Assembly: GCA_965178125.1 (NCBI GenBank)
Contig: OZ237760.1
Coordinates: 186,001-250,000 of the forward strand
Direction of reading: 5' to 3'
DNA from: Bilabrum cf. latius
Lineage: Eukaryota
DNA: 64,000 bases
Shown: positions 17,101-60,136 of the stretch, piece after piece
Layout: every line of letters begins with the position of its first letter
Position numbering within the stretch: position 1 is the stretch's first letter
Made by a program: the position numbers and the translations under genes
Notes under the pieces: model-generated
Databases searched by the model: none
What the model was told of the DNA's origin: nothing
The model's input: only the letters and a program-made list of their open reading frames with translations

Positions 17101-20100
17101 CGTCTCGGGCGCGCGAGCCTCGACCTCGCTGTCCTGCGAACGACGGCTTCCCAGTGCTCCATCTGAGTTCAAATTGGAACTCTCCTTATAGGTACCGCCA
17201 CCCGCAGTACTATATCCGGCCGCATTGAAAGCACCAGCAGCACCAGCATCCAACTCGCCTACCGCGTGCAGCATCTCCTGCTGATCAGTAGACGGCTGTA
17301 TCACAGCAGACCCACCCGCGTTCGCCCACGTGTCGGGAGCTTGTCCACTCCCGCCCTCGAGAGGACCGATTGACACACCTCCGGCACTCAACTGCAGTTC
17401 TGCTCCTGTTGAAAGGAACCCTGCGTTGTCTCCACCGGAGGCGCCGCTGGCGTCCACTGCATACGCGACTCTGCGCCTTGCCTGCTCACTGCCGCCAGCA
17501 GCGGCATGCAATGCGGACACGTCCACCCTCGCCGCCGCTGGCCGCCTTCTCCGCTTCTGCTCCTGCACGATCCTCCACCGATACCTCTGCAGCACCTTAA
17601 GATACACCTCCAGCTGGTCCTCGATATGCAGCTGCTCCATGCCGATGGATTGCTGAATCCGTCCGAATCGAAGCATGTGGGCCTGTCTGAGCTTCCTGAG
17701 CTCGGGCTGCCTGTATCCCTCCATCACTGCCGAAGTCACCCAAGCGATCCCAAAGGCCACCAGGAGCACCCCAAGCACGACCACTGGGAAAAGGTTCTCG
17801 GGTCGCAGGTAGTTCCGCAGCAGCCCAGCATCACCCACGGGATCCACGCGATTCACTGCGGGCAGGTCCCTCCGCACGACAGCCGTGAAGTCGCTAAGGT
17901 GCGTGGACGCACAGATGGCACTCGCGGTACCCGTGTTGCTCTCTCTCTCTATTCGCAGTAGCACTAGCCCCTCGGGAGACTCGTCGGAGTAGCTGGCTCC
18001 ATCCAAACCAGAGCACACAAAGTCCTCCGGAATCGTATCGGGCCTCACCGGGATGCGGACCACGATGGGACATTGCAGCCCGCTTACCTCCCTCTCACCC
18101 AATGTGCCTGCATCTGCCAACGTCACGGACACAAAACCAGCTGGACGGGTCTCGCGCTCTGCCGCTGGTGCGATCATGTCTTGGGGGGTCTAAGGGGACA
18201 CCTGCCAATGGACCACGCGCAGATCCGTGTTGCTCGATGTGGCGTCGCTTGCGTTGCTCCCCAGCAGATCAGCGGCCCCGTGCGCGTTCACGCCAGCCTG
18301 GCCTCGTTCAGATTCCACCTACAGCCCGATGCCGTTACCCCCTCCGGCGACCCTGCGCACCGTCACCTCGGCTGTGCCTGGGAGCGAAAGCACCAGCGGG
18401 GCCTCGCCTGGGACCACATTGAAAGCCGCCGATGCTGCGATCTGTTGGATTGTCGCATCCGTGCTAGCGCGATATCCGGCCAGTTCGTCGCCCATCCCAT
18501 CCAGTTCCTGTGTCCTCCTCGCGCGACGACCGTTCGAGGCCTCCCCTAGTGCAATGCCCTGCTGTATGAGCCCAAGGATCTCTCGACCCACTGACCGCAT
18601 CGAGGTCAATGCAGAGTTTGCTCCCAGAGATGCACTGTCTTGGGCCCCGAATCCATCCAGGACCCCTTGCAGTCCATCATTTCCAACCGGAGAACTATCA
18701 CCGGCCTGTGTCACACCAGCAGCGCTTTCGAAGACTTTGCTCATTAGCGACTATAAAATACCCTAAAGTTCCCCCCTCATCACCGGAGGCAGTTCGCCAG
18801 GGTCGCTGAATAGCCCCGAAATCACGCTCAACGCCTGCTCCGCCTCGTCGGGCGTGACCAGCTCTAGCTGCTCAAGCGACGACTGCAACACCGCGATTGC
18901 CGATCCGCGCACCTCCCACACCGCCTGCAGCAGGTCGTCCCCAACATCACACGCGCGACCGTGCCACCCCTCTGCACAGCTGCACACGGCCGCGCACCCG
19001 CCACTACTGCTGCCGACTCCAACTGCACAGACAGCCTCGTTCGGGATGCGAGCGCAGGTTCCGTGCCCGCTGCATTCTAGTACTGGGGCTCTTCCATCGA
19101 GCGATAGCACGCTCACGGACGATCCCGGGCACGCCTGCAGCATACTACTATCATCCCCTGCTGCTGGTACGGAAAGTCCGGTCACGCATCGACCCTTGAA
19201 GCACTGGGCCACGAGATTGCTTCCGGAGGGCGGCACGCAGGTTGAAGCATTGCATGCTGGTGTACCATCCGCTGTCGACGCTCCAGCAGTGCGAGCCAGA
19301 GCGCCTGCGAGATCCGCAATGGTTTGCAGCTGCGACAGCACTTCATCCACGGCCCTGAACTCCGTCTCGTTGCCGAGTGAGCCCACGATCTCTGCGAGGT
19401 CCTCAAGCCGCCCTTCGGCGACAGCAGTTGCGTTCTCCCCGGACGTCTCGCTGGGATCCTCGCCCAGCACCCTCACCACAACCGGACTCCCGCTTGCCCC
19501 GTACACAGACTCCACCGTGGCTCCCAGTTGGTCCCTCACCTGCACGCTCAGCACCACGGCCTGCGCCACGACCGGCGCGCTGGCCAGTGCATCCCGCGCC
19601 ACCTCGCTCGGGCTCACGATCACGCCCTCTAGCACCGGCGACTGGGAATATCCCCTGGACAGCGGAACGAACTCTGCCCCTGACTCCTGGTTGAGGCCTG
19701 CGACCAGCTCCGCGTCTGTGATGATCCCTGCCCCTGCTGCTTCTGAGGCGCCGACAGGCAGACGGTAATAACCGAAGCGGTACGACAGGGGCAGGTGGTC
19801 CACTTCATCTGTCCATCCCACTGCCCTCAGCTCCATCCCGGCTCCGTCCTGCTGCGACAGCAGCCTCACGTTCAATGGAATAGCACCCACTTCGTCGTCT
19901 GAAGCGGCCTCAATGTGTCCAGAGGAAGGGGGTGCGTTCGTCCCCACTGATACCGTGGATGTCACGCTCCACCCTGCGCTCTCGCTCTAGACAAGCACCT
20001 GCACCCGGTACTAGGCCCCAGCATCTAATTGATCCGACCGTATGACGGCCAAGGCCAGCGACGGCCTGCCGCTGAAGATTGAATCCCCCAGCGACTAGTC

Positions 20101-23100
20101 CCCGCTGGCCCCCTGCAGCACAGTGTATGTCGCGGTGATGTCCCGAGGCAGCGAGCTGTCCCCCACTGGCCCTGACGCCACGATTGGCTGAATGAACCCC
20201 GTGCCTGCTTCGCGTACCACTGGTCTCACAACAAGTCGCCTGCTTGTGCTGATTAGGACTGCGCCGCCGTTGTTGCTCGACCCAGCGATGAGAGACGACG
20301 CATCCACTTCGAGCTGCACGACAGGCGGCAACTGGTCGGGCTCGGCTGTCGCGGGGTACACGCCAACAACGGCAAAGGCGGTCTGTGATACCTGTGCTCG
20401 GGGGAACAGCTGCGGTGATCCACCGGTGGATGACGGGTTCCTAGTCAGCGAGACAGAAAACACCGCGACAGAGCCAGAGGGCAGGGTGCCTCCCTGCAGC
20501 TGCAGCACAGGGCCCCGCCTGTCAGCTAGGCCCTGGTTATCACCCCGCAGGGCTAGGGACACAGGAACGGATGGCAGGTACTGATCGGATCCAGGGCCCG
20601 TGAGATTCAAACTGGGACAGGGGGCGGTCGATGCGAGGAACGCAGCGCTGGGTGATGACACGACCTCCACTGCACGACCCACCGCCTGCACCTCATCGAT
20701 CCCTCGTGCAACCAGCCTGCAGCTCCACTCAATCCCAAGATCCCGTCCAGTGACGTCCATGTCGGCCGATCCTCTGGCATCCAGCAGCAGGTTTTGCTCC
20801 GCTGCTATGAGCCGCCGCGTCCCTCCGCTGATGACTGCCCGGAGACCCTCTGGCCGTACCACCAGCTGTGCGTTGGCCGACGCAGACACGGTCGTGGACT
20901 GCGACCCAGCAGTGGTTAGTCGCTGCCTTACAGTAGCCCGGAGCGTATAGGTTCTCCCCGCTCGCAGTACGCCAGCGGGCACATGCAGCGCACGGCCCCG
21001 CTGCCGCTGGTACTGCCCTAGCTGCTCATCTGACAGAAGCTGCGCAGGCAAGGACAGGTCTGATACACCCTCGGTTGGCTCGGCTGCAACCATGGTCCAT
21101 TGCACCGGCCCCTGTTCCACCATTGCATCCACGCACGGTGATGCTACGACTCGCGTCTGCAGGACGAAGGGCCGGAGCGCCGACCCCTGCAGCAGCTCTC
21201 CACCCACCATCGAGATGCGCGGGACGTTCTCTGCCAGTCTGCTGATGGTAACGGTCGACGCACCCGCATCTGCCGCCAGAAAATTGACAACACTTACTCT
21301 CAGCGTCACGTTACTTGCCTGGGCCGTTGCAGCCTGCGGCAGCGAAACGGAAGCTCGTCGCCCGGCAGACCCCGCCAGGAACGTGTTGATTAGGGCAGCA
21401 TCGGAAGGAAGCACTCCGGCTCCCTGTATCGAGACCAGAGTCCACTGGAATGACAGAGCCCGTCCTAGATTGCCCTGTGATGCCTCTGCAGACGCACTCA
21501 CTCCATCGCACGGCCCGATAAATGATGGCGCCTGCACCACGGCAATTGGTGCCTGCACCGGCACCCTCGGAGGCTCCACCTGTACGCACGCTGCACCCAT
21601 AGTCCGCAGCGAGAATGGTGCTGACCTCAATACGCCGCTCCTGAACCGGACCTAGGACAGCAGGCCGCCCGCACTGGTCGCGCTCGCTTCGGGTGTCGGA
21701 CAGGCCACCACGCCATCCCAGGGCCGCAGCGGAACAACCGCAGCCCCCGCGCTGAGGTAGACCTCCAGCTGTCTGGGCGACCGGAAAGCGCACCACGCCG
21801 TCTGCCCTTGCACGCCCTAAGCCCTTGCAGCCAGGACGCCTTGAACATTGGAGATCAATTCGTCACAAGCTGCTGATTGACGCCCTTGCGCTCCAATGCT
21901 CGCATCTACGTCGGCCGCGAAGGTGACTGACAGCCGGGCACCTGACGCGTCAAAGACGACAGACTGCACCACTGGTGCGAGTTGTCGGTCCTGCAGCACG
22001 GCCTGCCCTGCAGCAGCGAAATACTGCGCCCTCTGGGACTGAGGGTCCTGCAACTGCACCTCGGCTGCTCGAATTGCTCCCGCGCCTATTGACACAACGC
22101 CTCCTGCGACGAGTCCGCTAACCGGGGCAGTGAACGAGGGTACAGCTATGAGCCTCCTGGGGGAGTGCCACGCGCACATGGCGGCACCATCAGCTGCCGT
22201 GCTGGCGGTCTCATCACTGCCGAGTATTTGGGACAGTGTTGCGGCAGATAGCACGGCAGGGCTCGAGGAGCAAGGGAATCCACCCTCTCGCACCACCGAA
22301 GGCAAATGTCTCGACGCAGCCTCACTAGTCAGCACTGGCGGGAGCCCCGCAACCACCTGTCGCCCGCCCATGTCTGTGTCTCGGTCAAACTGCAGGAGGA
22401 TTGCCTCTGCCACTTCGAGGATGGCCGCAGATTGCAGCTGAGGGGGCTCTACGAAAACTGTCTCGATCTGCCGCACCGCCGGTTCTATGACCTCCTGCAC
22501 TGCGACGCGGGTAATTCCTCCAATCACAGCAAGGGGGTTATCCGTGTCCCCCGTGCCGATGCTCCGCTGCGTGGCGCTATCGTACGAGTGGTCGGAGCTC
22601 TGGAACTCAAGGTCAATGGAGCCGTCCAAGAAACGCGTTTCAACGAGACTCGCAGGTAGCGGACCCGACGGCTGGCTCCTGACTAGGCCAAAAGTCACGT
22701 CTTCTCTCCACCGCGAGGGCTCAATCACCTGCCGTGTGGCCCCGGTCAGTGTGAGGTACCCGGCGCTGTTCCCGCTGACGACGCAGTCAACCTGCACTGA
22801 AGCGGTGGGCCGACTTCCGAGCCGAAGGGTAATCTCAGCATCCCTGAAAGTGTACGAGGACCCGCCTTCTGCATCTTGTGTGGCGGCCACCACCACATCC
22901 TGCGGCTGCACCTACACCCCCACGCGATCCACCTCCCTGATTGGCAGCACCAACGTGACGTTTCCGCCCGTTGTCGCATCTGCAAGACCGGCGTAGGTGC
23001 TATCGATCGTGCCAACGGATTCTACCTGCACATACACAAGCACCGGCTGTCTCGGCGGACTTGCCACGCCATCCGCTGAGGTCTGCACTCGCACCGCCTT

Positions 23101-25779
23101 GGGCATGCTCCAGTCGCTCGGGGAAAACTCGAGCGTTGCATTTTGGGTGAGGCTGGATCTGGCATCAAAGGGTACTGCACCGAGGTCCTGTGTGCTCAGA
23201 CGGATCCTCACTGTGCCCGAGGGTTGCGATGCCAGCGCCACCGCAACAAACGCAGACCCTCCTTCTGCCGTCGCCGCCGACTCGCCCGTACCTCCAGCGT
23301 CTTCGGCCAGCAGATACGCGACATCAGAGGTGATATTCGTCCTTCTCGAGTCCGCGCGCGGCTGCAGCCCCAGCGGTATGCCACTGTCGCCCAACATCGG
23401 CGAGTCACCGGATGCACCGAATACAAGGAAACCAGCCTCGTCGTTGTCCAGCTGCTGCACCGTGATCGTTGCAGATGTCAGCTCAGTACCACCGTCAAGA
23501 GTCTCCAGGCGCAGCTCAAACCCGATTTCCGGGCAATTGCCAGTACCGGCCGAGCGATCGTCTGGCAGCTGCACCTGCAGCAGCACCGGGGCATCGAAGG
23601 CCTCTCTGCTCACTGCCGTCAGCATGTCCCCATTTCGCACCATTGCGCGCAGATCCTTGCCGCGGTGGCTCAGTGGGAACTGTACAGTGGCAGCACAGGC
23701 AGAGTCGTTGCCGGGGATACCAGTAGCGTTGGAGAAACCCAACACGATTACACCGCGTGCAGCACCCATTGGTTGGCTCAAGGCCACGTACAGACCTAGC
23801 GTGGCACCTTCTTCCATTGAGATTGCGGCAGCAGAGGACTTCGCGTACCTGCCGCCATCGGCCCCACCCACAATAGCGAGATCGACAGCATAGTCAAACG
23901 TGTCCATTCCGAAAGGCAGAGAGCCCCCAGGAAGGATGGCACCAGCAGGCTCAATGGCAATGGCAACGACGGGAGGAGGGCTAGCGGACGGACTTGGCGT
24001 GGGGCTAGTTGAAGCGCCGGCCGAGGATGACGGAGATGCAGCAGGGCTGTTGCTGGTGCTTGGGCTGTTGCTGGTGCTTGGGCTGTTGCTGGTGCTTGGG
24101 CTGTTGCTGGTGCTTGGGCTGTTGCTGGTGCTTGGGCTGACCATAGCAGTAGAGCCGCTGGTGCTGGTGGTTGATGGGGTGATAGACGGACTGCTGCTGA
24201 TGCTCGGCGTGGGCGAGCTGCTGGGGCTGCTTGTTATGCTCGGCGTGGGCGAGCTGCTGGGGCTGCTTGTAATGCTCGGCGTGGGCGAGCTGCTGGAACT
24301 GCTGGTAGGGCTCGGCGTGGGCGAGGTGCTAGGCGTGGGGCTGTTGCTGGGGCTGGCCGTGATGCTGGCGGTGACACTGGGGGTTGGACTAGGGCTGGGG
24401 GTCGGTGATGGGCTAGCCGAAGGGATGACCGGCCCACCCAGGTTTAGAAGAAACATCTTGCCTTGCCCACGACCGACCCAGTTCATGGGTGCTCCTACAA
24501 GCAGATTCATCCTCCCGTCCCCCGTCACATCACCGAGTGCGCACACGGTGTTGCCAAAATTGTCGCTAGCACTCAGCTGTCCCTCGAGCTCCCCATCCGA
24601 AGCGTCCTCCAGGATAGAGAAAGTGCTCACGCTGCCATTGGAGCGGAGCCGCATCATAAAAACTGCCCCTCGATCGTCTGAATTGAACCCAGGTGCACCT
24701 ACTGCGATCCAGGGCTCATTGGTTGCATCCAGCACGCCCATGAAGGTGATTCCAACACCGAAGTAGTCTCGTGGTGAGAGGTCCAAACCCGCGGCATCTG
24801 GCAAACCCTCGGCGATCACCACCGCCTCTCTCACAGTCGCATTCCGTCGCATGAACGAAATAATCACGGCGCCCTGCCAGGTGCCTCCAAAGTCAGAGTA
24901 CGATCCATCGATGGCAACATCCGGCAGCCCGTCATCGTCGAGATCGCCCAGCCCGGCCACGGCATACCCCAGACGGTGCACATCATCTGGTAGTCCTCCC
25001 TGCCCAAAGTCGGCGTGCTGGGACTCTACCACGTCCCTGACCGTGTCAGTGTCGCCATCCATCAGCAGGACGTAGAACGTTCCTTCAAAGGCGTACGCCC
25101 CCACCGAACCGACGCCAAGGTCCTCATGCCCGCCGCCGTCGATGTCTCCGATGGAGCCCACCGAATTCAGCGAGGTCTAGAAGGTTCCCCCAGGGACCCC
25201 CCCTAACCCGTTCCCGATCTTGGTGACGCCCACTTCTTCACCGCGGCTGTTGATCCGAATCACTGCCAGGCGGGAAGCCCATGTTTCCGTGGTGACAATT
25301 CGAAGCGGGAGGCTGTGGTTCTCGGCGTACCCAGGCTCCAGCCTACACAGGCCTACACCGACACCATTGCTAAAGCTCACGGGATGCCCGGCAGGCAGGA
25401 TCTCCGTGGCCCCTTTCACCGTCCCGTCCCTGTTCATGAACACCGTGTACACCTAGCCCCGCTGGTCTGTCGCACCAACTAGTGCCGTCCCGGCGCCCAC
25501 CACAGCATCCGGGACTCCATCGCCGTCTAGGTCCCCAATGGCATCGCACGCAGTCCCGAAGGCGTCCTAGAATCCCACCTGAAAGGGAAAGCCGCCTGTG
25601 GCATTCCCGATCTCCCGAACATCGGCGACCTGCCCTAGGACTAAAGGGGAAGGAGTAGCCTGAGGTGTGGGGCTTGCAGACTGCCCCCAGGCCCCGCGGT
25701 GCTGCAGCAGCACCATGCCAGCTACGGCCAGAGACGTGGCCAAGGGCAGTCGCGAGCGGCAATGAGTCGAACGGTGCAT
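14200..25779 (-). CDS. Giant (~3860 aa) polycystin-1/PKDREJ-like receptor: signal peptide, FG-GAP repeats, Ser/Pro/Thr stalk, beta-rich/REJ region, EGF-like, GPS motif, multi-TM region; 17 in-frame TAGs
   Basis: Twelve track ORFs share one frame, joined only by TAGs (25567, 25453, 25177, 22912, 21817, 21652, 20095, 20011, 19987, 18763, 18751, 18319, 18190, 16105, 15697, 15691, 15280). GPS motif AICASTHLSDF; PKD-like TM motifs HMWGSIF..TRPQRL..SMAINAIFFG and YGILF..AWVVASL..VDIVLQEP. Stop TGA at 14200. Start is the best-guess ATG. Confidence 0.85.
24044..24420 (-). repeat. Coding Ser/Pro/Thr minisatellites (18-bp SPSTSN x5; 36-bp PSSSPTPSITSS units)
   Basis: gggctgttgctggtgctt repeats at about 24043-24135; atgctcggcgtgggcgagctgctggg units at about 24200-24330. 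Confidence 0.9.
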
Positions 25780-27378
25780 CTGATGATCCGGCGCTGCGCG
25801 CACAAGGTTCCGCTTGCTGGGATTCGAGGGGGTGCGAATCCGGACGGGCGGCCTAGGCCCAGACATGACAGATGGAGGCGCGACCAATGCCTTGTGGAAA
25901 GCAGACCCTAAAACATGCGCACAAGAGGGATTGGAAGCATTCCACCCGTCTTCTTGGCTGCCAGCGCGAGCAGCGGATGGCATGCTGCGAGTGAGAGAGA
26001 CGACACAAGGTGAAGGGGTGGACGTGGAGGGACGAGGCGAGAATGTCGGTTCTCTTCTTGATGCACGGCGATTCAGCGCTCTTCTTTCTTAAATGACACT
26101 GTATCAACTACCACTATCGCCCCGAACAAGTCGCTGATGAGGCGGTCCATGCACACTGAGCGGCCACGGGCAGTCAAGGTAATTCAAGATGATTCGAGGA
26201 ACGGAGACACGCAGCGGTAACCTGAAGCCACCTGAATCGCCACTCATCAAGGAATCAAACGATGACAAAAACCCCGTGATTTTGCAACATCACGAAATTA
26301 AGACAGCATGCAACCGTCGGCCCGACAGCAACTGCTACAAGCTCGGTCAGAGTTCGATACCACAAAGGCCACATCTCACTAAAACTTACTAATGACTGCA
26401 AATAGAAGTAGCAAAGACACCAAATATTCCCAAGTTAGTCTCAACACAGCGAATACACTGCTACAGTGGGGTACCCTCGACACCGTTGACCGGGTTGCGG
26501 CTTGATACAGCCAGACTCAGGACGGCAAGGTACCCGCAGAGCGACTTGGATGCTTTTAACTACTATATCTCTTACATTCTCTGCACGATTCTGTAGATAA
26601 CTACCGGTTTTGGGGCTTCGGAGTTGGGAGAGGATCTGGGCCTCTGGCTTGCGGAAAAACAGAGCAGACGAGACCAATCACGGCTAATCACCACCAGAAA
26701 ATGTATATGCTGAGAGTTAGTAGACCACTTATGTATACAGCCGAACGCCCGATCCGTGACGATCCCAGGAAGTGACAAAAGGTCGCTGGCCATGGCAAGC
26801 AGCCAGTGCCAGTGCCAGTGGTCGCAAACGGCACCGGTTGTACCCGTTCGGCACTGCGGCGACGTCCCCGTGAACCACACTCATGCTCAGCCCTTGTTAA
26901 AGTGTTTTACCTAGTCGTGGCCTGATCCGGATGCTGTCTCCCATGGGAATGATGCTGCTGAAGGAGCTCCACCTCTTCTTCCACCGTCACAGCTCACCGA
27001 ATTTCGAGAGTTTCTCCGAGTCTGTTGTGTTCTCCGAGATGCAGCGTAGCACCCACGCTGCATCACGTGCAGTACCGGTGGCCAAGTGCAGCCTGCTGTA
27101 GGGGGGCTACGTTGCGAGCTGTCGGCGCGCATGATGCACCAAAGGAGAAATACAGAAATACAGAAATACATTGTTGGGTAAAGATTCCACAAGCACCCAG
27201 ATGCACCGTTGCCCCCGAAGGAGTTCGAGTGATCACCTGAATCCAGAGGAGTCCTCAAACAAGGACTACAAGACCCCCGACCCTTTCAGGCCAAAGGCCC
27301 CCCAATCTCAGCCTACACCGCCGAGTCCCCTTTATTCGCCATCAATGTGGTCCCCCACAAGCCCTCAGCCTGATGCCT

Positions 27379-42351: not shown

Positions 42352-44771
42352 TCATTGGCCGAGCCCGGTCGCAGACATGCCCTCGAACCCAGCTGGAGGC
42401 CCTCCGCTCTGGGCCTAGATCTACCCCACCGGAGCAACCCCCTCCGGCACGTCGCCCCCTTGCCGCAGCACAGCCAAAGCCCGCGCAGACGCAGACGCCC
42501 CCAAATCGCCCTACGACGCCTCACCCTCGCTTCCGATGGTTCCCATCGCCACGGCAGCGGCGGACCCCGAGGACCCAGCCGCAGCCGAGGACCCAGCCCC
42601 AGCCTCTTCCTCCCCGTCCTCTTTCTCCGCAAACGGGGCCTTGGCCGCCTCGAGCACCCCCTGCACGCGGGCCGTCTGCCTGCGCACCGCTTCCTCCGCC
42701 CTGGCCAGAGACTCAGACCGCGCTGCCTCGAGCACGCCCTGCAGCCTCTCTTTGTGCGCAGCGATGGCCATCATCGATGCGTAGATCACGTCCTCCTTGT
42801 CCCTCCTCTCCGCCTCCATCTCCTGCCCCTCCCGCCTAGTCTCCTTCTCGAAACGGCCCAGGGCGTCACCGCCCACCCCCTTCGCCTCCGAGTCCCTCGC
42901 GTCCAGGTCCTCCCTCGCCCCCATGATGTCGCCCTCCAGCTGCTCCATCTCGTCAGCGCCGCTCGTCAGGTGGGCCTCCAGCGCCTCCTTCTCACGCCTG
43001 TACGAGTCTTCCAGGGAACGAACCCGCTTCTCCAGATCCTGCGTGCGTCTCCTGACGTCCTGTGTGCCCTCGCTCACCTGCTCGGTCTCATCCAGGAGCT
43101 CCAGCGCCTCGGTCTTGGCCTCGTGCGCCCGCTGCAAAAAGCTCTGCTTGAGCTCCCTCAGCGCGGGAAGAACCTCGCTGCCGATGTCCCTGCCCAGCAG
43201 ACCAGCCGTGCCTGCCCTCGACATGGAAGTAGCGAGGCTTTCCCGTCCCCTGCCCCTGGCACCTTTCCGAGCAGACGCCATCGGCCCGCCCACCCCCGAG
43301 GCACCCAGGCTCTCAGACACCCCCGCCCCGATGGCCGAGGGGTTCACCTCCAGCTCGAATTCGGTGCCGTTGGCGTGCTTGTCGTCGGGCGGGAGGAGCC
43401 GGAGCTCCGCGGCGGCCGCGTGGTACTCCTCCACGGCCCCTTGCAGCCCCTCGAGCGCCTGCTGCACCTGCATGCCGGCCTCGAAGGAAGCCCTCTGGGC
43501 CTGCTCCCTCTTGCCCTGCGCCGCCTTGGTCTGCTGCACGAGGTAGTCCCGCCTCTCCTCCGTCTGCCTCACGTCCTCAACGGACATTTCCTGGTGCTCC
43601 AGCGTGTCCTGCAGTCGCCCCACCTCTGCCTCGGCCTCCTCGGCCGCTTCCTCCGCGCGCTCCGCCTCGCTGACGGCGGCGTCCAGCTTGGCCTGAAGGG
43701 CGTCCCTGTGCGCCTCCAGGTCAGAGATCAGCTTAATGAACTTCTCCCTGTCCGACAGGAAATCGTCCCTCCTTGACCTAGCGGCGGGGAGCTCCTCGCC
43801 CTTGGCCTGCAGCCGCGCCAGCTCCGCCTTGAGCTCCGCCGTCTCGTCTCGCATGGCGTCTGTCTCCGCCCTGATCTCGTCGTGCTTGGCGCCGAATGTG
43901 TCCGCGATCTCAGAGTCCAGTGCCTCGAACGCGTCGTCGTCGCCCGACAAAAAGGCCGCGTAGGACGACTGGAGGTAGTTGAAGAAGAAACGCTCGTCCC
44001 CTCCCGCGCCCTCCCCGTCCTCCTCCGACTCGCGGACTCGCTGGTCGTACTCGAGCAGCTCCAGAAGCCAGGCAATGGAGGCAAGCAAGGCGGGCCATGT
44101 GTGCGGGGATCCCACGGCGGTAAGGCCTGTCTTTGATATGCCAAACGGGTACCTGAGGGCTTTGAACACGAGCGGCACCTCCTCTTCCACCCTTGACTGC
44201 ATCGTGTAGGAGCCGTCCAGCAGCCGAAAGAGAAATAGCACAATGTTCTAGAAATCCTTGCCAGTAGGATGCTTCAGAATCTTTTGTGAAATCCTCTGCT
44301 GGAAGTCGTTTTCGAGCAGGAACGTAACCAACTGGTTGATAGAATCGAGCTGGAATGCACCGGACGTGATGGGCCGGGGGTCAGCCCGCTTCGAGGCTAG
44401 CCCACCCTTTCCAAATATGCTCGATCTCCTGCAGTGGTTAAACGTAAAGGGTGCAGTCTCTGGTATCTTCGCGGGGAGCAAAAAATCATGCACGACGTCA
44501 GTCACCACGGAAGTACTTTGCATAGCAAAATAAACCCAGTACGTGCAATAGCTGAATAATTAGGTCCTAAAACACACCTGCTTGAACTGGCTGGTCTTGC
44601 GGTGGAACCAGGGGCAATCGAATGTCGAGCGCGAGCTCGCTTGCCGCCGCCTGCGCCTGCGCCACCACCAGCTGCCCCTCCCATAGATCGGCGTGATTTG
44701 CCGCCCATCGATGCTCTTGGAAGCATATTGCTACCAATTGGGCCCAAGGTAGTGCGTCTTGCTGACGACAT
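42352..44771 (-). CDS. NDC80: Kinetochore protein NDC80/HEC1; intron 44429-44577; 4 in-frame TAGs
   Basis: DPRPI..FLLEN..PTGKDF*NIVLFLF..EEEVP..LRYPF.ISK..AVGSPHTWPALLASIAWLLEL, followed by a long coiled coil. TAGs at 44248, 42511, 42421 and 42415; first TGA at 42352. Confidence 0.93.
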
Positions 44772-45150
44772 GGTTCAGGATTGGAGTCTGACCCTTTGAA
44801 CGATAAACGGCTTGGAGGATAATACGGATTGTTTTGGTTGCGAGTGGTTTTACAGTTCACCAAACTGGGTCCAAATTTGAGTGTAAGCCGAGTGATCTAC
44901 GCTTCTGCAGGGGCTATATTTGTTTATTGGTGAACTTCAATACTTCTCTTTGCTTCTCGACCGTTTGTGGGCGTATAGTCCGATTGAGTCGGTCCTACCG
45001 CTAGTTCTGCGACCCATTGCCTAGATGGCGCTTAACCCTGCCGTGATGGAAAGAGAAAACAGTTTCCCGCTTGAGGATATCGAACAGCCGTAGACAAATC
45101 CGAGCGGGCAGACAGGTGGAGCCTCTGCACCCGCAGCCGCGGGGTTCTCC

Positions 45151-47024
45151 ATGGATGTTGAAGCTGGCGGTGCGTCTGCGGGTGGTGGTGCTGCCGCTGC
45201 CTCGGCCCCACAAGACCCGATGCAAGCGTCGTATGACCCCAGCCCAACGTACGGTACCACAGCTACTGGCAATACGCAGCAAGTGTCTCCGTTGCATGCG
45301 CAACCCGCGCCTGGATTCGGGCCAAGCCTGCGCCGGCAGGACTCGCGAAGCGCTGTGGACAGGGTGCGGGGGCTGTTCCGAGATCCAAGCCAGAATGGAG
45401 TCCAGGAGGAAACGTTTTTGTGGTGAGTTGCTTCAATCGGGACCTGCCTTCTGCCCGATACTGCCTGCGCCGCCCTTGATGCAGCACCAGACAAATCCGA
45501 GTTGCCACTGCCACAGGCGCATACCCACGCCCTGCCCCTCTCCACCAGGACGCTACCCAACCGCTGCCTCTTCCCATCACAGCCCGATCTGCTTCGAGAA
45601 CCTCAACGTGAAGGACGGGTTTAGGTTGCAGGGGTGCAGCGAGCACAACCTCTGCCGAAATTGCGCGATGGCATACGTCCAGACGTACATCAACAACGGC
45701 GGGGCTGTTAGGGAGATGACGTGCCCCATCGGGGACGAGTGCCAGGTGCAGTTCTCGCCCCTTGACGTGCGCAGACTGGACCCCGAGCAGGGGGAGGGTC
45801 CGCTGTTCCAGCGATACATCAAGTTCTTCAAGCAGCAGTCTGGCAAGCACGCCCCCTGTCCCAAGTGTGGCTTCCTGAATGAGGGCAACCCGGAGCAGAC
45901 GGTCAAGATGCAGTGCAAGGAGTGCAGCACGAAGTACTGCTTCCACCACGGCAATCAGCACGACCCCGACAAGGAGACTTGCGACCAGTACCTGCGGCGG
46001 ACGGCCCAGGCACAGCAGGAGACCGACCGGATCATCCAGACGACCACGAGCGAGTGCCCCGGTTGCGGGGCACTTATCAACAAGACGCGAGGATGCAACC
46101 ACGTGAGAGAAATACCGCGCTGTGCAATACAAGGCACCTAGTTGCCGTGGATTCGGATATAGGTGCCTTGCATTGTAATGGATTCCCTCGCCCCTCGCTA
46201 TGATGAGCTCCATCCATTCTCGCCCCCCTTCACAATCACTGCCCTCGCAGATGGTGAGTGTGCACCACATCCATCTGCTTTTGGCTGCTATCCATAGCCC
46301 CGCCGAAGTCGAGCCCTCGTTCAGCCGCTGCTATCGCGCACGGCGGTACCCCGCGCGGACGAGACTCATACGCTCGATGGATCTGGTCTCAATGCCTACA
46401 CCATGTCCTAAATGTGTGCGCCCAGCAGCAGTAACTTCCTCGCTATTTGTAAGAACCTCCTGCTCTCACTCGTCACATGATTCGCAGACATGCCGGCAGT
46501 GCAGGGTGGAGCATTGCTACCTGTGCGGCGAGCGCATCGGGCGAGGGGCGCCCGAGTCCGTGGGGCAGCACTACGCCACTGGCAACAGCGCAGGGTGCCC
46601 CGGGATGCACTTCACGAACGCGGCCCCCCGCAGCCGGGTCCGTTCACCGGAGGAGAGGCAAAGGGCTAGGGAGAGAGCGGAGGCCGCCGAGCGATGCCAG
46701 CAGGCTTGGAGGCCTGTCCTGCTGGTCCTGGCGATCATGCTCTTCCCAGTTGCAATGGTCACCACGCTCGCCATGATGGCGATCACCGTTCCGCTGCTGT
46801 CCGTCTGCATGCCGTTCCTTGCGATCCTGGAAGACGACGACTGCGACTGCTGCCCAGGGAACTGCACGCCCTTCCAGGTGGTGTGCTGCTGCTTCGCGCC
46901 GTGCTTCGACAACCCGGACGACTGCCTGCAGAGCATGTTCACGCCGTGCATCTATCAGTGGAGGTACTGGGTGTGGTGCTGCAACACGGTGCTGGGCGAT
47001 GACACGTGCGACGACGACTGCTGA
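45151..47024 (+). CDS. RBR (RING1-IBR-RING2) E3 ubiquitin ligase with C-terminal TM and Cys-rich tail; exons 45151-45422, 45583-46102, 46251-46253, 46488-47024
   Basis: Splicing gives FLCPICFE..CSEHNLCRNC..CP (RING1), CPKC..CKEC..YCFHH (IBR) and CPGC..GCNH|M|TCRQC..HCYLC (RING2). All junctions are GT-AG; stop TGA. Confidence 0.9.
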
Positions 47025-47264
47025 TGGATACCATGCCGATGGGGCTGCAAGATGGAAGTCTGCTATCCTGGGTCAATCTGCTACATGCGATGCGGCTCGT
47101 CGATAGTTAGGTCCGGATGCAGCTTGTGAACGGATTGCATGGCGCCGACAGCTACGCATGCAGCAGACAGCAACGGCGACAGCGACCTTTGGATCGTCAA
47201 CTTCAAGTTGAAGAAGAAGATATCGCCAGGTGGCGGTCCCTCGCTACAATCAGGCTGCAGGTGT

Positions 47265-49940
47265 ATGCTTTGGGCATGCATAGCATGTTTACTCCTCAGT
47301 TTGGGGGTTAACGCAAAGCATGGGTATTCTTCGGGTCTCCTGCAATCTATCCCAATTGCATGGGCCCAGTTGCAGACTGGTGCCGTCACATCGATGCAGC
47401 TGCCAAGTCGTAGGCAGCCAGTCCATGCGCACACAGCCGGGCGATTGGGAAATGTGCTATTCTAGCTTACGGTATAGCGGAGCATTTGGGGGTTGTTGCA
47501 TGATGCGTGTCATTCTGCGGCTAGTAGGAATTCCAATTCTTCAATTTCACCTGAGCGATTGCTGCGCATTGCTTGCCCTAGGGGGGCCAACTTTCGAAGA
47601 CCAGAACCCATATAGCCATATGATATAATTGGAGCAACGGTAGCTGACACTGGCACGATATTCCCAGCATAGGACACCTGGCGAACCCGAGGCTTTTCAC
47701 GAGCACTTGAATTGAGTTTGACAGCACCACGAGACGTGCAGTACCACGTACAGTCGCGATCTCAATAGTTTACAAATATGCTTGAGGACAGGAATTCCTC
47801 GGCTGACCTTCAATTGACCGGCCAGCACAGAGATCGTGGGGTTTTGCTCATAGTCCAAACGATTGCTTCGCTGCACACTGCTATCAAGTCGGAATCTTGG
47901 CTTGGGATCGCACCGTGGCGCGTGGCAGAACTTCTCAACGCAACCTAGAAACATATGTACCAGGGTCTTGCCATTCCGAGTCTAGATGTCGCCATCGCGG
48001 CTGATATTGACGACACCAACGCCATGGCTGTATTGCCCGGCTCCCCTGCCCGCGGCGTGCCCCACCTGATCCAGACCAGCTTGTTCCCTGGCATCGACAC
48101 CAATCTTGGCGCTCTCATACAGGCCGCCGGCGAGGGCCGTACCGGCGAGGGCCGTACCGGCGGCACTGATTCGCCCAGCGCACGCACGCACCTGGCAGCG
48201 ACCGCAGCGGGTGGTGGTGCGGGTGGATCTCCCGGTGCTGTGGAGTGGTCGGTGATGTCTTACGGACACGCCGAGGCCCTGCCGGTCGTGTTTGCCCACC
48301 CTGCGGGCCACCGGGACACGTGTCGTGCAGTGGCGCCGCCCGTTGGAGTAGCGGCGGCGCTGCGGCTGCTGCTGTCGTGGCCGGGTCGGGGCGACACGGC
48401 GGGGTGGGCACGGCTGCAGGATCGGATCAGGGAGGCTGAAGTGGGTGCATCGCACGGCGGTGACATCAGGAGGTGCCATCGTCCGTCGTTCTGCCAGCTG
48501 GTGGCGATGATGTGCCCGGCCCTGGTCACCGGTGGCTCGCTTAATCCGGATGGCGGGTCGTCGTGCCCTGGGGGCGTGCTTCGGCTGACTCCCATGATGC
48601 AGCTGTACTGCAGGGAGTGGAAGCCCGTCACTCGGGACGGCTATACGGCCGCAGATGTGGCAAGCTTCGAGCGAGCTGCAGGCAAGGGGCGGTGGCGTCA
48701 GATCGAGTTGGCTTTGGGGGGGCAAACACGATCGCAGGACGGCAGGACGGGCGCTGCGCTGGGGCTGTAGATGGCGAGACAGATGCAGGGGCGGTGGGAG
48801 TCGGACCACAGCGGGGCTGGTCAGCAGGCGGCATGTGGGTCTGGGCATGAGCTAGCTCGGGAGCTGAGCGCGGGCGGGAGCGTGGCGGATGTGGGGGAGG
48901 GCAAGACTGCGGCAGTCTCGCTGTCCTCGCTGCACCGTGCCAGACGGGCTGCTGCCCAGGCCCTGCCCCCATTGTTGCGGGCGGGCATCCCCGAGGCGGG
49001 CGGGCCGAAGCTGGTGTGCGTGCACCACCGTAAGTTCGAGTCGTATGCGGTGGCATTCCGGTGGGAGCACCCTGTGCGGTTCACGGTGGAGGCCACGGCC
49101 GTCGCGGCTGCAGACGCGGATCCTGGTGCATTCCGTCGGGCGGTGTTGGCGGTGACTGGCATGGATGTGGGGTTGCGAAGGGTGATGCCTCGGTGGGCAG
49201 GGTCTGTGGAAGCGAGTGAAGCAATAGGCACTGCCGAGGCCTCGGCGGAGCTGGATCTGCGTCAGGTGGTGCTTGCTCTGTCGTCTCGGCCGGGCGTTGC
49301 TGTGGACGTGCTGGAGCACATGCAGCAAGCAGGGGCGGTGCGGCTTGTGCTTGCGTCGATAGATCCTGGCTTTGCGCGTGCTTCCGAGCCTAAGTTCGCA
49401 TCTTTGCTATCGTGGTCGGTGCATGCCCTGGACACGATCGGGATGGACGCTCTGCTGGACCTTTAGGGGCTGGCGCTTTGCGACTCGCTGGTGGAAGGGG
49501 CGTCGACGTTCAGCCTGTGGGCGGGGCTGGTGGGGGAGCAGGCGGTGCAGGGGGCTGGGGCGCGGGTGCTGGCAGGGACGTCATTGGGTGGTGGTGGTGT
49601 CCGTGTGAACGGTGCAGGCGTGCGATTGGGCGATCTGTCGGTGCCTGCCCGTCGGTGCAGCCTGCGCCCGCCGCTGAGCTCGCTGTCTCAGCTTGAGGGC
49701 GATCCTTTGCTGGGGCCTCCGACGGGGGGCTGCGGTCGGTTGGCGGTGGAGTGGTGGCACGCGCAACGGGCGGCGTGGATGGGCCCTTACGGTGTGACGA
49801 GTGCGCTGTGGGGCGCTGGATCTGCGAGGGATGCAGCTGACGTGTTCTATGCGGCGGCTGCTCGGTACGAGTTGGCGTGGGGTGGGCGACTTGGGTCTGC
49901 CGAGCTGGGGCCAGCGCCTGTGGGACCGTACCTGGCATGA
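47265..49940 (+). CDS. GT11-like (alpha-1,2-fucosyltransferase-type) glycosyltransferase, copy A; 8 in-frame TAGs
   Basis: N-terminal signal/anchor; GRLGNVLF*, VCVHHRKFE and DL*GLALCDSLVEGASTFSLWAGL parallel the GT11 motifs GxLGNxxFQ, HxRRGD and STFSWW. TAGs at 47463, 47475, 47613, 47670, 47766, 47946, 48768 and 49464; stop TGA. Confidence 0.75.
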
Positions 49941-52020
49941 GTTGGATCTAATTTGCTGTTTTCCTTTGCAGCGCTCTATTGTCATTGTGTTCTTCTTCTA
50001 TACTTGAATGAAGATGAAGATGATATACATCTATAATTTATTCTTGAATTAACATCTTGAGTAGTTCTAGAGTGAACTGAATCCAGCCTCCCTAGTATGA
50101 CTGGGAACCTATTATGCTAAATAAGGTCCCACAGGCGCTGGCCCCAGCTCGGCAGACCCAAGTCGCCCACCCCACGCCAACTCGTACCGAGCAGCCGCCG
50201 CATAGAACACGTCAGCTGCATCCCTCGCAGATCCAGCGCCCCACAGCGCACTCATCACACCGTATGGGCCCATCCACGCCGCCCGTTGCGCGTGCCACCA
50301 CTCCACCGCCAACCGACCGCAGCCCCCCGTCGGAGGCCCCAGCAAAGGGTCTCCCTCCAGCTGAGACAGTGAGCTCAGCGGCGGGCGCAGGCTGCACCGA
50401 CGGGCAGGCACCGACAGATCGCCCAATCGCACGCCTGCACCGTTCACACGGACACCACCACCACCCAATGACGTCCCTGCCAGCACCCGCGCCCCAGCCC
50501 CCTGCACCGCCTGCTCCCCCACCAGCCCCGCCCACAGGCTGAACGTCGACGCCCCTTCCACCAGCGAGTCGCACAGCGCCAGCCCCTAAAGGTCCAGCAG
50601 AGCGTCCATCCCGATCGTGTCCAGGGCATGCACCGACCACGATAGCAAAGATGCGAACTTTGGCTCGGAAGCACGTGCAAAGCCAGGATCTATCGACGCA
50701 AGCACAAGCCGCACCGCCCCTGCTTGCTGCATGTGCTCCAGCACGTCCACAGCAACGCCCGGCCGAGACGACAGAGCAAGCACCACCAGACGCAGATCCA
50801 GCTCCGGCGAGGCCTCGGCAGTGCCTAGTGCTTCACTCGCTTCCACAGACCCTGTCCATCGAGGCATCACCCTGGGCCCACTCGATCGCAACCCCACATC
50901 CATGCCAGTCACCGCCAACACCGCCCGACGGAATGCACCAGGATCCGCGTCTGCAGCCGCGATGGCCGTGGCCTCCACCGTGAACCGCACAGGGTGCTCC
51001 CACCGGAATGCCACCGCATACGACTCGAACTTACGGTGGTGCACGCACACCAGCTTTGGCCCACCCGCCTCGGGGATGCCCGCCCGCAATAATGGGGGCA
51101 GGGCCTGGGCAGCAGCCCGTCTGGCACGGTGCAGCGAGGACAGCGAGCCTGCCGCAGTCTCGCCCTCCCCCACATCCGCCACGCTCCCGCCCGCGCTCAG
51201 CTCCCGAGCTAGCTCATGCCCAGACCCGCATGTCGTCTACTGCCCAGCCGCGCTGTGGTCCGACTCCCACCGCCCCTGCATGTGTCTCGCCATCTACAGC
51301 CCCAGCGCAGCGCCCGTCCTGCCGTCTTGCGATCGTGTTTGCCCCCCCAGAGCCAACTCGATCTGACGCCACCGCCCCTCGCCTGCAGCTCGCTCGAAGC
51401 TTGCCACGTCCGCGGCCGTGTCGCCATTCCGAGTGATGGGCTTCCACTCCCTGCAGTACAGCTGCATCATGGGAGTCAGCCGAAGCACGCCCCCAGGGCA
51501 CGACGACCCGCCATCCGGATCCAGCGAGCCACCGGTGACCAGGGCCGGGCACATCATCGCCACCAGCTGGCAGAACGACGGACGATGGCACCTCATGATG
51601 TCACCGCCATGCGATGCACCCACTTCAGCCTCCCTGACCCGATCCTGCAGCCGCGCCCACCCCGCCGTGTCGCCCCGCCCTGGCCACGACAGCAGCAGCC
51701 GCAGCGCCGCCGCTACTCCAACGGGCGGCGCCACGGCTCGACACGTGTCCCGGTGGCCCGCAGGGTGGGCAAACACGACCGGCAGGGCCTCGGCGTGCCC
51801 GTACGACATCACCGACCACTCCACAGCACCGGGAGATCCATCCGCACCACCACCCGCTGCGGTCGCTGCCTGGTGCGTGCGTGCGCTGGGCGAATCAGTG
51901 CCGCCGGTACGGCCCTCGCCGGCGGCCTGTATGAGAGCGCCGAGATTGGTGTCGGTGCCAGGGAACAAGCTGGTCTGGACCAGGTGGGGCACGCCGCGGG
52001 CAGGGGAGCCGGGCATGACC
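48030..52020. repeat. Long inverted repeat: arms about 48030-49937 and 50115-52020 with a ~175-bp AT-rich spacer
   Basis: The arms are near-identical reverse complements; for example, the 149-aa translations of 49491-49940 and 50112-50561 differ at one residue. Small indels are present. Confidence 0.95.
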
Positions 52021-52775
52021 AGGACATCCGTTGGCGATTGGGCGCCGCTGGCAGATCGCAGCAGGTTTACGCTCGCCTCGGGCCCTGGGGCCGCCAGACC
52101 CTGATACATGTCCTTTTTGGTGGTTCCTGCTAGCTGTGACAAGCGCCATGGGGTAAAACCTAGCCGGTGTCCTGGAGTTGTAGCTGTCAGTGGCGAGCCA
52201 ATCATTGGGCAGAAAATAATCAGCCCGCGATTGGGCCACTTATCGTCAATTGTTGCAGCCCTTAGCGGCATGTATTGCGATTGATTCTTGATTACTTCAG
52301 GAACGCTCAGTGGCGCTACCAGTGCCTATGATACTGCACTCATAAACCCCTGAGATCTCCAAGCGTCTGCGATTGGCCAAACTGTATTCGGCGGGGTTAG
52401 CGAAGCTGTCATCACATCTTCTGTCAACAGCGGATCTGGAGGTCGAATTGCTCCAGAGTATGGGCATGAAAGCCGAATTAGCAGCTCAGGTGGAGACTTG
52501 GACGTGTTTACTGAGCGTTGGTTGCAAGCACTGTGTAGCAGCCCCCATAGGCTCCTTTGCGCAGAAAGTTGAAACAGCATGTTGCCCAGTCGCCCTGATA
52601 AATGAACATGGACAGGTCTGCCGCTATGTAAAACTCTACTTCGCACTGGGGCTCCATCCATCAATGCAGTCCATCCGATCGAGTACGGATGAATGAGTTC
52701 TAGTGCGTTGCCGCGACCAGCATTTGCTGCTTGCCTGGTTAGCAACACAAGCAAGAATACGTCAATCCATCTCAT
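50112..52775 (-). CDS. GT11-like glycosyltransferase, copy B; 4 in-frame TAGs
   Basis: MRWIDVFLLVLL..GRLGNMLFQLSAQRSLW, with the same downstream motifs as copy A. TAGs at 52326, 51294, 51237 and 50586; stop TAA. Confidence 0.75.
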
Positions 52776-53221
52776 CTATAATTGTACGCCTAGTGTGCTC
52801 ATCAGGCGATGAAGCGACGAGCACATCCGAGACCGGAAGTATCGGCAGAACCATATTCAGTGGGCGCAGATGGGCGCCCTGCATCCATCTATTTGGGCTG
52901 CTGCGACGAGGCATGCTGCCTACGAACCCTAAATATGAGGCGGCGAGCTCTCCTCGCCGTTGCCGCAGTCCTCGCGCAGTTCCTCCAGAGCCGGTCCATT
53001 GAAAAACCACAACCCCCGTGCCCATTGCAAGTTGCGGCCCAATGGCAGCTCATCGCACCAACAGGATGGGAGATCAACCAGTTATCTTAGCAGCGATCTG
53101 CACAATCTAGCGCGCACGCACACCATTGATAAGTGACCACAGACTCCCTGATTGCATGGCGCCAGCTCCAGCTGCCGTTGGAGCCAGGCCATGTGATATG
53201 AATGCGTGAGCGTGAGCGATT

Positions 53222-53752: not shown

Positions 53753-53798
53753 TCTGCAGCTGTGTCTATGGTCGAAATGATATAATTATTGGTCGCAT

Positions 53799-57217: not shown

Positions 57218-60136
57218 TTAGGGTCCGTCTGCGTCGCTCCGGGGCGGGTACGCGGACTACTCAAAGGCCTTTGCGGACTCTGTCGTGTACACAATCCTCT
57301 CGCTCTCCTTCTTGAGCCCTTCGCTCACCCACTGCTCCTCCTTCTGGTTCATGTAGTCCCTAAGCTCCTTGTACTTGCCCCTGCCCGCGGGCGGAGGGAG
57401 TGCGGCGAGCAGGCCGGTCGCGCTGATGGCATCCCCGAGGCCCACCGTGCTCTTCGGGTGCTTGCACACGAGCACTGGTACGTAGGCGAAGGTCAGCACG
57501 GGCTCCTTCAGCTCGTTCAGTGGCACTGTGGGGAGGGATGCGTCGCGTCCCAGGGCGTCCACCTGCAGCTCGGGCTCTTCTTCCTGTACTCCCTGGGGAA
57601 TTCCCTCCCCCTCTTGCTGCTCCCGCGTGGCCTCCTCTTCCGCCACGATCACCTCGTGCTCCTCCACGGCCCTCCTGAGGCGGATCTTCTGCCTCGGTGA
57701 GAGCTTGACGGTTCCGCGGGCCATCCTGTAGGCGAGGCGTTGCGGGCGCATGGGCCACTCCCACTGCACACCGGGCACCTCTGGGGAAATGCTGAGGCTG
57801 TTCCAGTGCCTGCGGTTCGGGATGGCCATCCCGTCAGGTCCCGTGCGGTGGATCCCCTGGCTGCCAAGTCCCGCTCTTCCGTCGACCTTGGGCCCTTCGT
57901 CCTCGTCGTCCTGCAGCTCTGGCGCATCGTCCGAGCCCACCGTGCCTCGCTTGCCCGCCAGTCCGGACTGTAGCTCGAATTCTGCGTCTTCTGCTGCAAG
58001 CGCCAGTACCTCTGGTTCCGGGACGCCCACGAAGCTCATGTCGATGCCCCGGGGGACCCTGCGGAGAGCATGCCTCGCTAGGATGAAGAGGTCACCGTCG
58101 GGCAGGTCACTGATGGGCGTGCTGTCGTTCAGGGCACCGTCAGACACGAGCTGGCTCCGCAGAGAATCAAGCGCGTCCAGGCCCACCTTACCCAGCGAGC
58201 CCCTACGGGCCATCAGCAGCTCCTTCTGAACCTGCTTGCGGCCGTCCGTTGCGAACTGAAACCTCGCCGCGGGGTCGCCGGCATCCACCCGCATGGGTGC
58301 AAGCAGCTTAAGGTCGTCCTCGCCCAGCTCCTCCGCTTTGACTCCACCGCATGCCTTGGTCGTGGCGCGCAGCGAGCCTGAAAACAGGGCGTTCGTGGCG
58401 TCCCTCCATTCCACACGACCTTCGCGGCGTACCTCCATGTGGAACGCGAGCGTGTGCAGGTGGATCCGGTTGATCCGGAAGTTCCGCTGCGCGGAGATGA
58501 CGTGGCGCAGTGCCGCAGCGCAAGCCTCGGGACTTCCCGGCTGCGGCCGCACCAGCATGTCGCGCGAGGGGACTCCGATGAGCGGGTCGTATGCCCCCCC
58601 GGTGGCCTCGAATAGATCGGCGAGCTCCTGCTCGTTCATGCCCACCGAGTCCGCGGCGGGGAGCGCCTCATGCGCGAGAACCTTCATGAACTCATTGGTC
58701 CCCACGGAAGCCAGCTCGATGTGCTTGGCGGCCTCCTCAAAGACCTAGTAGAAGGGGTCCCTCACCTGGATGACGGCCTTGCGCTGCTCCTCAGGGGTAG
58801 ACAGCGCCTCGTACATGTGTAGTCCAGCCAGGATGGCAGCGTCAGCGTCGTACCCGACACCACCGGCATCGATGGCTCGGTCGGCGTACGTTGGGTCGGC
58901 CATGCGATCGTCCGAGTTGAGGATGAAACGGTTGGCCCTAGGCGGCGCCAACCCGGCGAACGTCTCCCCGGCGGAGTACTCTAGGATCAGGTGCACCGTG
59001 TCGGGTCCCATGGCATCCAAGGGGAAATCGTTGGCTTCTTGCAGGCCGGCCGGGATTTCCTTCCCATCCGCCTCGATCATTTCCCTCTGCTTCGCACGAA
59101 TGCCGTTTTCACCCTTCGCGAATGCCTCCACCATGTCTTCAAGCCCGCTCTCGGTTCCATTGGCAAGGAGGCCTTGGTAGGGGTCGCTGGACAGCAGCAG
59201 CCGACGGGTCTCTCTTCCCATGTAGCCCCCGGCGAGCACCCGCGCACCGAACTTGACCGCTTGAACCGCCATGAGCGCGGCGTTTCCTCCCAGCCGATCC
59301 TCAAGCACAGGCCGGTACCGCACCTGCTCGGATTCCTGTTGCCTACCAGCGGCGGAGGGAGGGGAGCCAGTGGAGTCGTGCGCGACCTCCGTGGTGTTCT
59401 TCGCGCCCACGAGTGGTTGGCGATGGGATGCGAGCACTGCAGGGACGTACAGGTCGTTGTACTCGGTTGAGTTGGTCACGGACCTCTCGCCCGCCGCGCC
59501 GCTTTGGAAGAAGAACAAAAAGGACTCGATCGCCTGCTTGACCGAGCCGATCTCAGGGTGGTCAAAACCTTGAGGTCGGGCACCAAACGCCTCGATTAGA
59601 TCTCTATCAGATGCCTAGGCAAGGCCCTTAGCGTCTCTTGCAAGCTCGACTCCGCCCGGTGTGAGAGTGTCTTCCTACAGCTCGCCTTGAGCAGCTGCTC
59701 GAACCGCCTGCTTCAGGAAACCTCGCATATATGGTACACCGCGTACTACCCTATCGATGCAAAAATTGTGTGAAACATACAAACGCTGCGAAGTCTCGGG
59801 GAGCCTGAAATGCTGGGCCTTCTGCTCTCGAAGCATGCCTGACAGAGGGCCCGGTGCTCCGTGTGGATACACATCTGGCGCATTCTACGCAGCTTCCCGG
59901 GCCAGCTTTTCGTTAAATGCCTGGGTAGGGAGTCCGTCTTCTCCAACTACTGGCAACGTATCTCCTGGTGTAGGCCCCGGCACGTCCAGCTCGCTAGGAC
60001 TTGTGTCGACCTTTCCAGCACCACCGATACCAGCCTCACTGCTCGCCTAGCCTTCGCCCGTCTCCTTGGCTGCATAGCATGTAATAGCAAGGATTGTCGC
60101 AACTAGTGCGACAAGTCGTGGTTGAGTGTCCCTCAT
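57218..60136 (-). CDS. ADPGK: ADP-dependent glucokinase (ADP-PFK/GK family) with N-terminal signal sequence; 6 in-frame TAGs
   Basis: Motifs GGNAALMA, HLILEY, PRANRFI, HIELAS, DSVGMNEQEL, RIHLHTLAFH and PVLVCKHPKSTVGLGDAISATGL. TAGs at 60047, 59885, 59675, 59615, 58745 and 57257; TAA at 57218. Confidence 0.9.

Follow-up and report, generated by a model that had tools for sequence, protein, structure and literature searches.

Evidence for TAG as a probable third glutamine codon in nuclear DNA of a bicosoecid-type stramenopile

Results

The window analysed here (64,000 nucleotides, positions 186,001 to 250,000 of contig OZ237760.1, assembly GCA_965178125.1) carries two paralogous genes, A and B, each interrupted by in-frame TAG codons (Table 1). 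From this pair an earlier note, made from the sequence alone, proposed that TAG specifies glutamine (Gln) and that TGA and TAA serve as stops. This reading is borne out by orthologs in a sister species, by homolog columns, by spliced RNA contigs and by a control in which single stop codons are read through. We put at about 90% the probability that TAG is a third, synonymous Gln codon, with TAA and TGA as stops, in this bicosoecid-type stramenopile and in at least one sister species, an assignment equal to genetic code 15.

We compared A and B by codon alignment with TAG masked as X. The pairings from which the proposal had started were reproduced: two 5' TAGs of A lie opposite CAA in B, one TAG of B lies opposite CAG in A, one TAG of A faces lysine as the note had itself pointed out, and both genes end at the same residue (PYLA), followed by TGA in A and by TAA in B. 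Two more TAGs, which the note does not mention, are common to both copies (Table 1). The nine unshared TAGs of the pair face Gln (3), Leu (2), Lys (1), Ala (1), Gly (1) and a gap (1). Four of the nine have at least 11 of 20 identical neighbours, and these face Gln three times and Lys once, which is far beyond chance because non-Gln residues face Gln at just 46 of 4956 well-aligned positions. By itself the pair is nevertheless thin evidence for a code, suggestive but small. Since CAG can equally become TAG by everyday nonsense mutation, the pair does not separate a changed code from gene decay, and evidence was therefore sought outside it.

Reading through TAG alone opens 12 frames of at least 700 codons in the window, the longest of 3962 codons, compared with one such frame when TAA is read through, five with TGA and one with no read-through; in these three cases the longest frames measure 754-780 codons. 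This control was used in place of a count of TAA and TGA within genes, which is circular for frames defined under TAG = Gln. The 15 frames so defined (16,592 codons) contain 89 TAG, 141 CAA and 469 CAG codons, so that TAG makes up 89/699 (13%) of the Gln-type codons. Seventeen gene ends, a tally that by construction cannot contain TAG, comprise 13 TGA and 4 TAA. The share of TAG among Gln-type codons is 33/131 in the first fifth of 14 genes and 52/538 in the rest, the 5' value being possibly inflated by uncertain start sites, and it falls from 33/175 to 15/176 with rising local GC content at third codon positions (GC3). RPB5, with seven Gln codons, has no TAG. This usage fits that of a minor, less preferred synonymous Gln codon. 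Assignment of both TAA and TAG (UAR) to Gln was considered and rejected: TAA read-through opens only as many long frames as no read-through at all, and in the A/B pair a TAA faces a TGA stop.

The residue opposite TAG was next read from homologs. A metagenome scan returned 80 NDC80 loci, one of which, L001, belongs to another species with 76% DNA identity to the window and the same gene order. The NDC80 TAG at 44248-44250 faces CAG in L001, a window CAG sixteen codons upstream faces TAG in L001, and in the RBR ligase gene a further window CAG faces TAG in L001. The two species thus show CAG opposite one window TAG and TAG opposite two window CAGs, an exchange in both directions. Among the 80 loci, only L001 has an in-frame TAG in a well-aligned stretch; L066 has a TAG and L072 a TAA, both in weak alignments, and the remaining stops look intronic. 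The Cafeteria-clade locus L002 (583 codons, 21 Gln, no TAG, stop TGA) holds too little to reveal its code. The weakly aligned TAA of L072 (NDC80 match 2-520) faces Gln, Glu or Ala in three queries; it may be an error or point to a further organism whose code has changed.

Two other genes add sites of this kind. In the glucokinase, a close ortholog (P0036) has Gln opposite the TAG at residue 464. The hydroxylase TAG faces Gln in an ortholog of 58% identity, and 78 of 121 homologs (those of at least 230 residues, kept from 150 matches) have Gln in its column. Nine pairwise alignments were pooled, giving 20 TAG columns, of which 2 are TAG/TAG and 18 are unshared. At the 11 well-aligned unshared sites (local identity threshold 0.55) TAG faces Gln eight times, Ser twice and Lys once; over all 18 the count of Gln is likewise 8. 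Gln is accordingly the dominant residue opposite TAG in the tabulation that the earlier note had proposed, run here on the 64-kb window. In the same alignments true Gln codons face Gln at 170 of 216 positions, so that TAG trades places with CAA/CAG about as often as genuine Gln codons do. The log10 likelihood of the residue at TAG reaches -6.4 with Gln and -17.4 with the runner-up residue. In addition, protein calls of relatives made under table 11 stop exactly at a window TAG (P0036, P0053) or a window CAA (P0203).

Spliced RNA contigs retain the TAG codons. Four runs were compared with window positions 34000-53999; three of them, X5, X6 and X8, from two coded studies, behave as RNA, since they skip canonical introns; their label as RNA is a guess of the program, and no run listed is recorded as RNA. 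Six genes were checked, with the methyltransferase-like and MFS genes left out, and 21 of their 27 TAGs are covered by X5 or X6 pieces without a single other letter, while the remaining six have no covering piece, in both cases among the pieces listed. One spliced X5 contig holds six TAGs of paralog A. Although contigs drop rare variants, the fact that intron-skipping contigs keep the TAGs unchanged makes both editing and small introns unlikely.

Another feature of the X5 data concerns transcript structure. One spliced contig (window 45025-48063, + strand) runs from the RBR gene through a spacer of ~240 nt into paralog A; this may reflect overlapping or read-through transcripts, or an assembly merge.

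Genes of the window and its origin

Paralogs A and B are arranged tail to tail, with inverted arms of 1037 nt (96%), 760 nt (98%) and 114 nt (97%) over their 3' two-thirds, where the DNA is 96-98% identical; the 5' thirds have diverged. The near-identity (window 48034-52015) is bounded by the stop codon on one side and by about codon 298 of A on the other, and from codon 290 on the 638 aligned codons show 32 synonymous and 32 other differences. Together with the 175-nt spacer, this pattern has the appearance of a partial inverted duplication or of gene conversion. The pair is probably an inverted duplicate whose 3' parts were homogenised recently; it is one witness of the code and not its cause.

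The earlier note had also taken the first Gln that faces a TAG of A (at 47463) for that of the conserved FQ in the motif of glycosyltransferase family GT11. This was not confirmed: neither whole paralog has a Pfam match at E 0.01, the N-terminal motif has none at E 10, and no sequence relative is found in the PDB at E 10. A 77-residue C-terminal piece resembles GT11 (PF01531; E 0.09, 12.4 bits), below the curated cut-off of 23.9 bits. The N-terminal motif has a likeness to that of GT11 as well, which Pfam does not confirm, so that the motif argument is a resemblance and no test of the code. The GT11 profile has 298 positions, compared with ~890 residues in the paralogs, with short motifs alike at both ends. 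Judging from these motifs, the paralogs may be membrane or secreted glycosyltransferases that are distantly GT11-like and carry large insertions. The conclusion on the code is independent of this label.

Table 1. Features of the window; strands and positions are those of the window, and frames are given under TAG = Gln
Feature	Position	Strand	Remarks
Fatty-acid-hydroxylase-family gene	7722..8819	+	Sole TAG at 8043-8045
FG-GAP/REJ protein	14200..25983	-	3927 codons, 17 TAG
Glutamine cyclotransferase gene	28197-29510	+	Pfam E 4e-73; 4 TAG, none within the domain; gene convergent with that of the ferric-reductase-like protein
Membrane protein, 1915 residues	29627-35374	-	Weak ferric-reductase-like match (E 0.0097); 15 TAG, eight in the first 370 codons
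NDC80	42352..44771	-	One intron near 44428-44576; phylogenetic marker
RBR-type E3 ligase gene	45025..47024	+	Four exons, stop TGA
Paralog A	47139..49940	+	933-codon frame, 8 in-frame TAG, stop TGA; likely start ATG 47265 (by alignment with B)
TAG of A	47463..47465	+	Faces CAA, B 52569-52571; unchanged in spliced contig X5 record 5
TAG of A	47475..47477	+	Faces CAA, B 52557-52559; unchanged in X5 record 5
TAG of A	47946..47948	+	Faces AAA (Lys) in B; well-aligned site, not Gln
TAG common to both copies	48768..48770 (A)	+	B 51294-51296
TAG common to both copies	49464..49466 (A)	+	B 50586-50588; within the weak GT11-like C-terminal motif
Paralog B	50112..52826	-	904-codon frame, 5 in-frame TAG, stop TAA; likely start ATG 52775
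TAG of B	51237..51239	-	Faces CAG, A 48825-48827, within the near-identical part; unchanged in X5 record 6 and X6 record 12
ADP-dependent glucokinase gene	57218..60136	-	6 TAG

Under TAG = Gln, Pfam identifies in the window an inositol-phosphatase-like enzyme, a fatty acid hydroxylase, FG-GAP/EGF and FG-GAP/REJ surface proteins, a phosphopantetheinyl transferase, NDC80, an MFS transporter and an ADP-dependent glucokinase; RPB5, a glutamine cyclotransferase and an RBR ligase are further genes. Pfam domains span TAGs in the NDC80, ADP-glucokinase, MFS, EGF and REJ cases. Within the 64 kb, ARAGORN finds no tRNA gene, Rfam gives no match, and eRF1 is not among the genes identified.

Canonical introns confirm that the DNA is from a eukaryotic nucleus, and a phage or bacterial origin is ruled out by the introns, NDC80 and RPB5; a scan for related viral contigs found no relative. 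GC content is ~0.54-0.68 in 2-kb bins. The best named match of NDC80 is Cafeteria roenbergensis (44% identity), and none of the matches bears a Bilabrum label. In a single-gene NDC80 tree of 34 rows (35 matches minus P0032, P0034 and P0035, plus the window and L001), for which compositional bias was flagged, the window, L001 and P0001 form a clade (100/100) that is sister to a six-row clade with C. roenbergensis (98/97). We read the window as nuclear DNA of a bicosoecid-type stramenopile outside Cafeteria proper.

Several smaller features were also seen. The RBR ligase has a 3-nt micro-exon (46251-46253, + strand) consisting of ATG (Met) between two introns, which completes the Cys-Asn-His-Met-Thr-Cys of the last RING; the AG-ATG-GT arrangement recurs in L001 (opposite strand, near 18-34), and a joint in X5 spans the region. 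The FG-GAP surface proteins at 9079-13125 (+) and 14200-25983 (-) have in common a Ser/Pro/Thr repeat with a 36-nt period and ~75-84% DNA identity. A 39-nt motif with T- and G-runs occurs in three intergenic copies (60409-60492 and 61469-61507), and a 107-nt repeat in two (8793-8899 and 13267-13373).

Discussion

A number of observations weigh against reading TAG as Gln. Three of the 11 well-aligned sites are not Gln, and the alignment threshold that defines them was set after the A/B result had been seen; the seven poorly aligned sites that it drops face Leu, Ala, Leu, Val, Asp, Thr and Thr, with no Gln among them. In the REJ protein, for which the search returned one fragment with one TAG site, residue 1024 (TAG) faces Ser in a 68% identical ortholog fragment, and a TAG in RBR also faces Ser, adjoining a gap. 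At the NDC80 TAG site, the 15 distant homologs that cover it have Gln twice and Lys six times. A classifier based on neighbouring context ranked Gln 7th of 20, although it was uninformative, as true Gln was recovered in just 80 of 200 control draws. Finally, the protein call P0205 from a relative ends opposite a window Lys. These points could be taken to mean that TAG encodes another residue (Ser, Lys, Glu, Leu or pyrrolysine) or a mixture, given the two Ser and one Lys among the 11 well-aligned partners and the Lys-rich column of distant NDC80 proteins. However, every residue other than Gln is worse by at least 11 log10 units, and a share of 3/11 is what is expected, since in these alignments a residue other than Gln stands opposite true Gln codons at 46 of 216 positions. 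We therefore regard another residue as highly improbable.

It is about as improbable that the code is standard and that the mRNA is edited, from U to C to give CAG or from A to I to give tryptophan (Trp), or is relieved of its TAGs together with small introns. U-to-C editing would likewise make TAG face Gln, and the loss of rare variants from contigs could hide some of it; but the contigs that skip real introns keep the TAGs with no other letter and no gap, including the contig with six TAGs of copy A, and Trp ranks only 14th in the likelihood tally. We give still less credence, indeed next to none, to the TAGs being nonsense mutations in decaying genes or assembly errors. A change from CAG to TAG is a single transition, and the authors of a Bilabrum study took their own case for a premature stop. 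Decay would, however, have to account for two TAGs that face CAA, two changes away, for TAGs that are unchanged in independent runs and present in a single-copy kinetochore gene, and for the two-way exchange of TAG and CAG with a species whose DNA is 76% identical, and read-through of TAA or TGA opens no comparable frames. The main rival, which we consider unlikely, is a dual role in which TAG is Gln within genes and a terminator near the 3' end of some mRNAs; ambiguous stops of this sort are known from some ciliates and from Blastocrithidia. The MFS and glucokinase genes each have a TAG shortly ahead of their final stop, at distances of 12 and 13 codons, that of glucokinase is common to a relative whose table-11 call ends there, and the tally of gene ends excludes TAG by construction. 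The last 30 codons of 14 genes, however, hold 4 TAGs where 2.3 are expected, with no clear excess or depletion, and both dedicated stops are in use. Moreover, the sister protein P0001 conserves a motif of NDC80 that lies past the last two TAGs; in this gene TAG is therefore read through at a distance of 21 codons from the end.

We propose the following route for the change. The decoder of UAG would be a tRNA-Gln whose anticodon, CUA, differs in a single base from the usual CUG and cannot pair with UAA, and eRF1 would have mostly lost its grip on UAG while keeping UAA and UGA. If the code is as we read it, this route is probably the correct one; such a tRNA and a weakened recognition of UAG by eRF1 were proposed for Iotanema, and the rationale is given in PMC5304391 and PMC11687900.

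A published case in Bilabrum, which is grouped with Cafeteria as anoecids (PMC9733931), suggests that the same code is used there. For the channelrhodopsin B1ChR2 of Bilabrum sp. (Anoecida), the supplement contains two allele records (PMC9733931). By eye, TAG stands at bases 309-311 (codon 99) of the allele that is labelled a pseudogene with a premature stop, whereas the stop-free allele has CAG, a Gln codon, in that place (PMC9733931 supplement). The marked feature has 628 codons and the stop TGA. According to the record, several alleles exist and there are two variable stop positions (PMC9733931). Under TAG = Gln the allele B1ChR2x would give, again by eye, 627 residues, longer than the partial published protein, and the 'pseudogene' is probably intact. 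The term 'genetic code' does not occur in the text or four supplements of PMC9733931, and the authors name no code change.

A code with TAG as Gln is already known from Iotanema, three ciliates and phages, and what appears new is its occurrence in this lineage. UAA and UAG nearly always have the same meaning in nuclear genomes. A literature search that left most subscription journals outside turned up no nuclear code change described for bicosoecids or stramenopiles, so that prior notice is possible. As far as the accessible portions of these sources extend, no stramenopile nuclear code change appears in a 2024 stramenopile review (PMC11412368), a 2026 culturing review (PMC13768787), a 2025 trypanosomatid code paper (PMC12153298) or the WiChR preprint, and no stramenopile is among the UAG-only exceptions in those of a 2024 paper (PMC11687900). 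On balance we favour the view that this is an unreported nuclear code change of stramenopiles, in a clade sister to Cafeteria that probably includes Bilabrum, which arose in a GC-rich genome with TGA as the main stop, unlike the UAA-preferring cases, and which has left TAG and CAG as interchangeable alleles, with TAG pushed to the 5' and low-GC3 parts of genes. Cafeteria next door would be standard-code, judging from its database proteins.

If true, this offers a free-living flagellate, with a standard-code Cafeteria adjacent, in which to test how changes in tRNA and eRF1 separate UAG from UAA, and an independent case on another supergroup branch, with high GC and TGA as the main stop, tests whether such a change needs low GC or a preference for UAA. 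More practically, proteins of relatives are cut at these codons in public collections, and it seems to be for this same reason that a published channelrhodopsin allele of Bilabrum was put aside as a pseudogene. In a bolder and speculative vein, giant viruses and virophages like those that infect Cafeteria would have their TAG-ending genes garbled by the code change, and the existence of giant viruses in which TAG means Gln could be explained by hosts of this type.

Among the closest known systems is the nuclear code of Iotanema spirale (Fornicata), in which UAG is Gln and UAA and UGA are stops (PMC5304391). The table is the same and UAG is a minor Gln codon in both, at about 8% there and 13% here; however, UAA is the primary stop in Iotanema, whereas TGA ends 13 of 17 genes here. 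The eRF1 of Iotanema carries a T32G change (PMC5304391). As the two lineages are unrelated, the code of the window has an independent origin. The ciliates Hartmannula sinica, Trochilia petrani and Protocruzia tuzeti also read UAG as Gln and UAA as stop (PMC11687900, in its accessible sections), and are like the window in that UAG alone is reassigned, decoupled from UAA. They differ in that the organism here is a stramenopile, in GC content (27-54% in Phyllopharyngea, PMC11687900, compared with ~0.54-0.68 here), and in that TGA, not UAA, is the commoner stop here. The crAss-like phages with genetic code 15 (PMC9523058) resemble the window in having TAG as Gln and TAA and TGA as stops, but termination here acts through eRF1 and not through bacterial RF1/RF2, and the window, with its spliceosomal-type introns, NDC80 and RPB5, is DNA of a eukaryotic nucleus.

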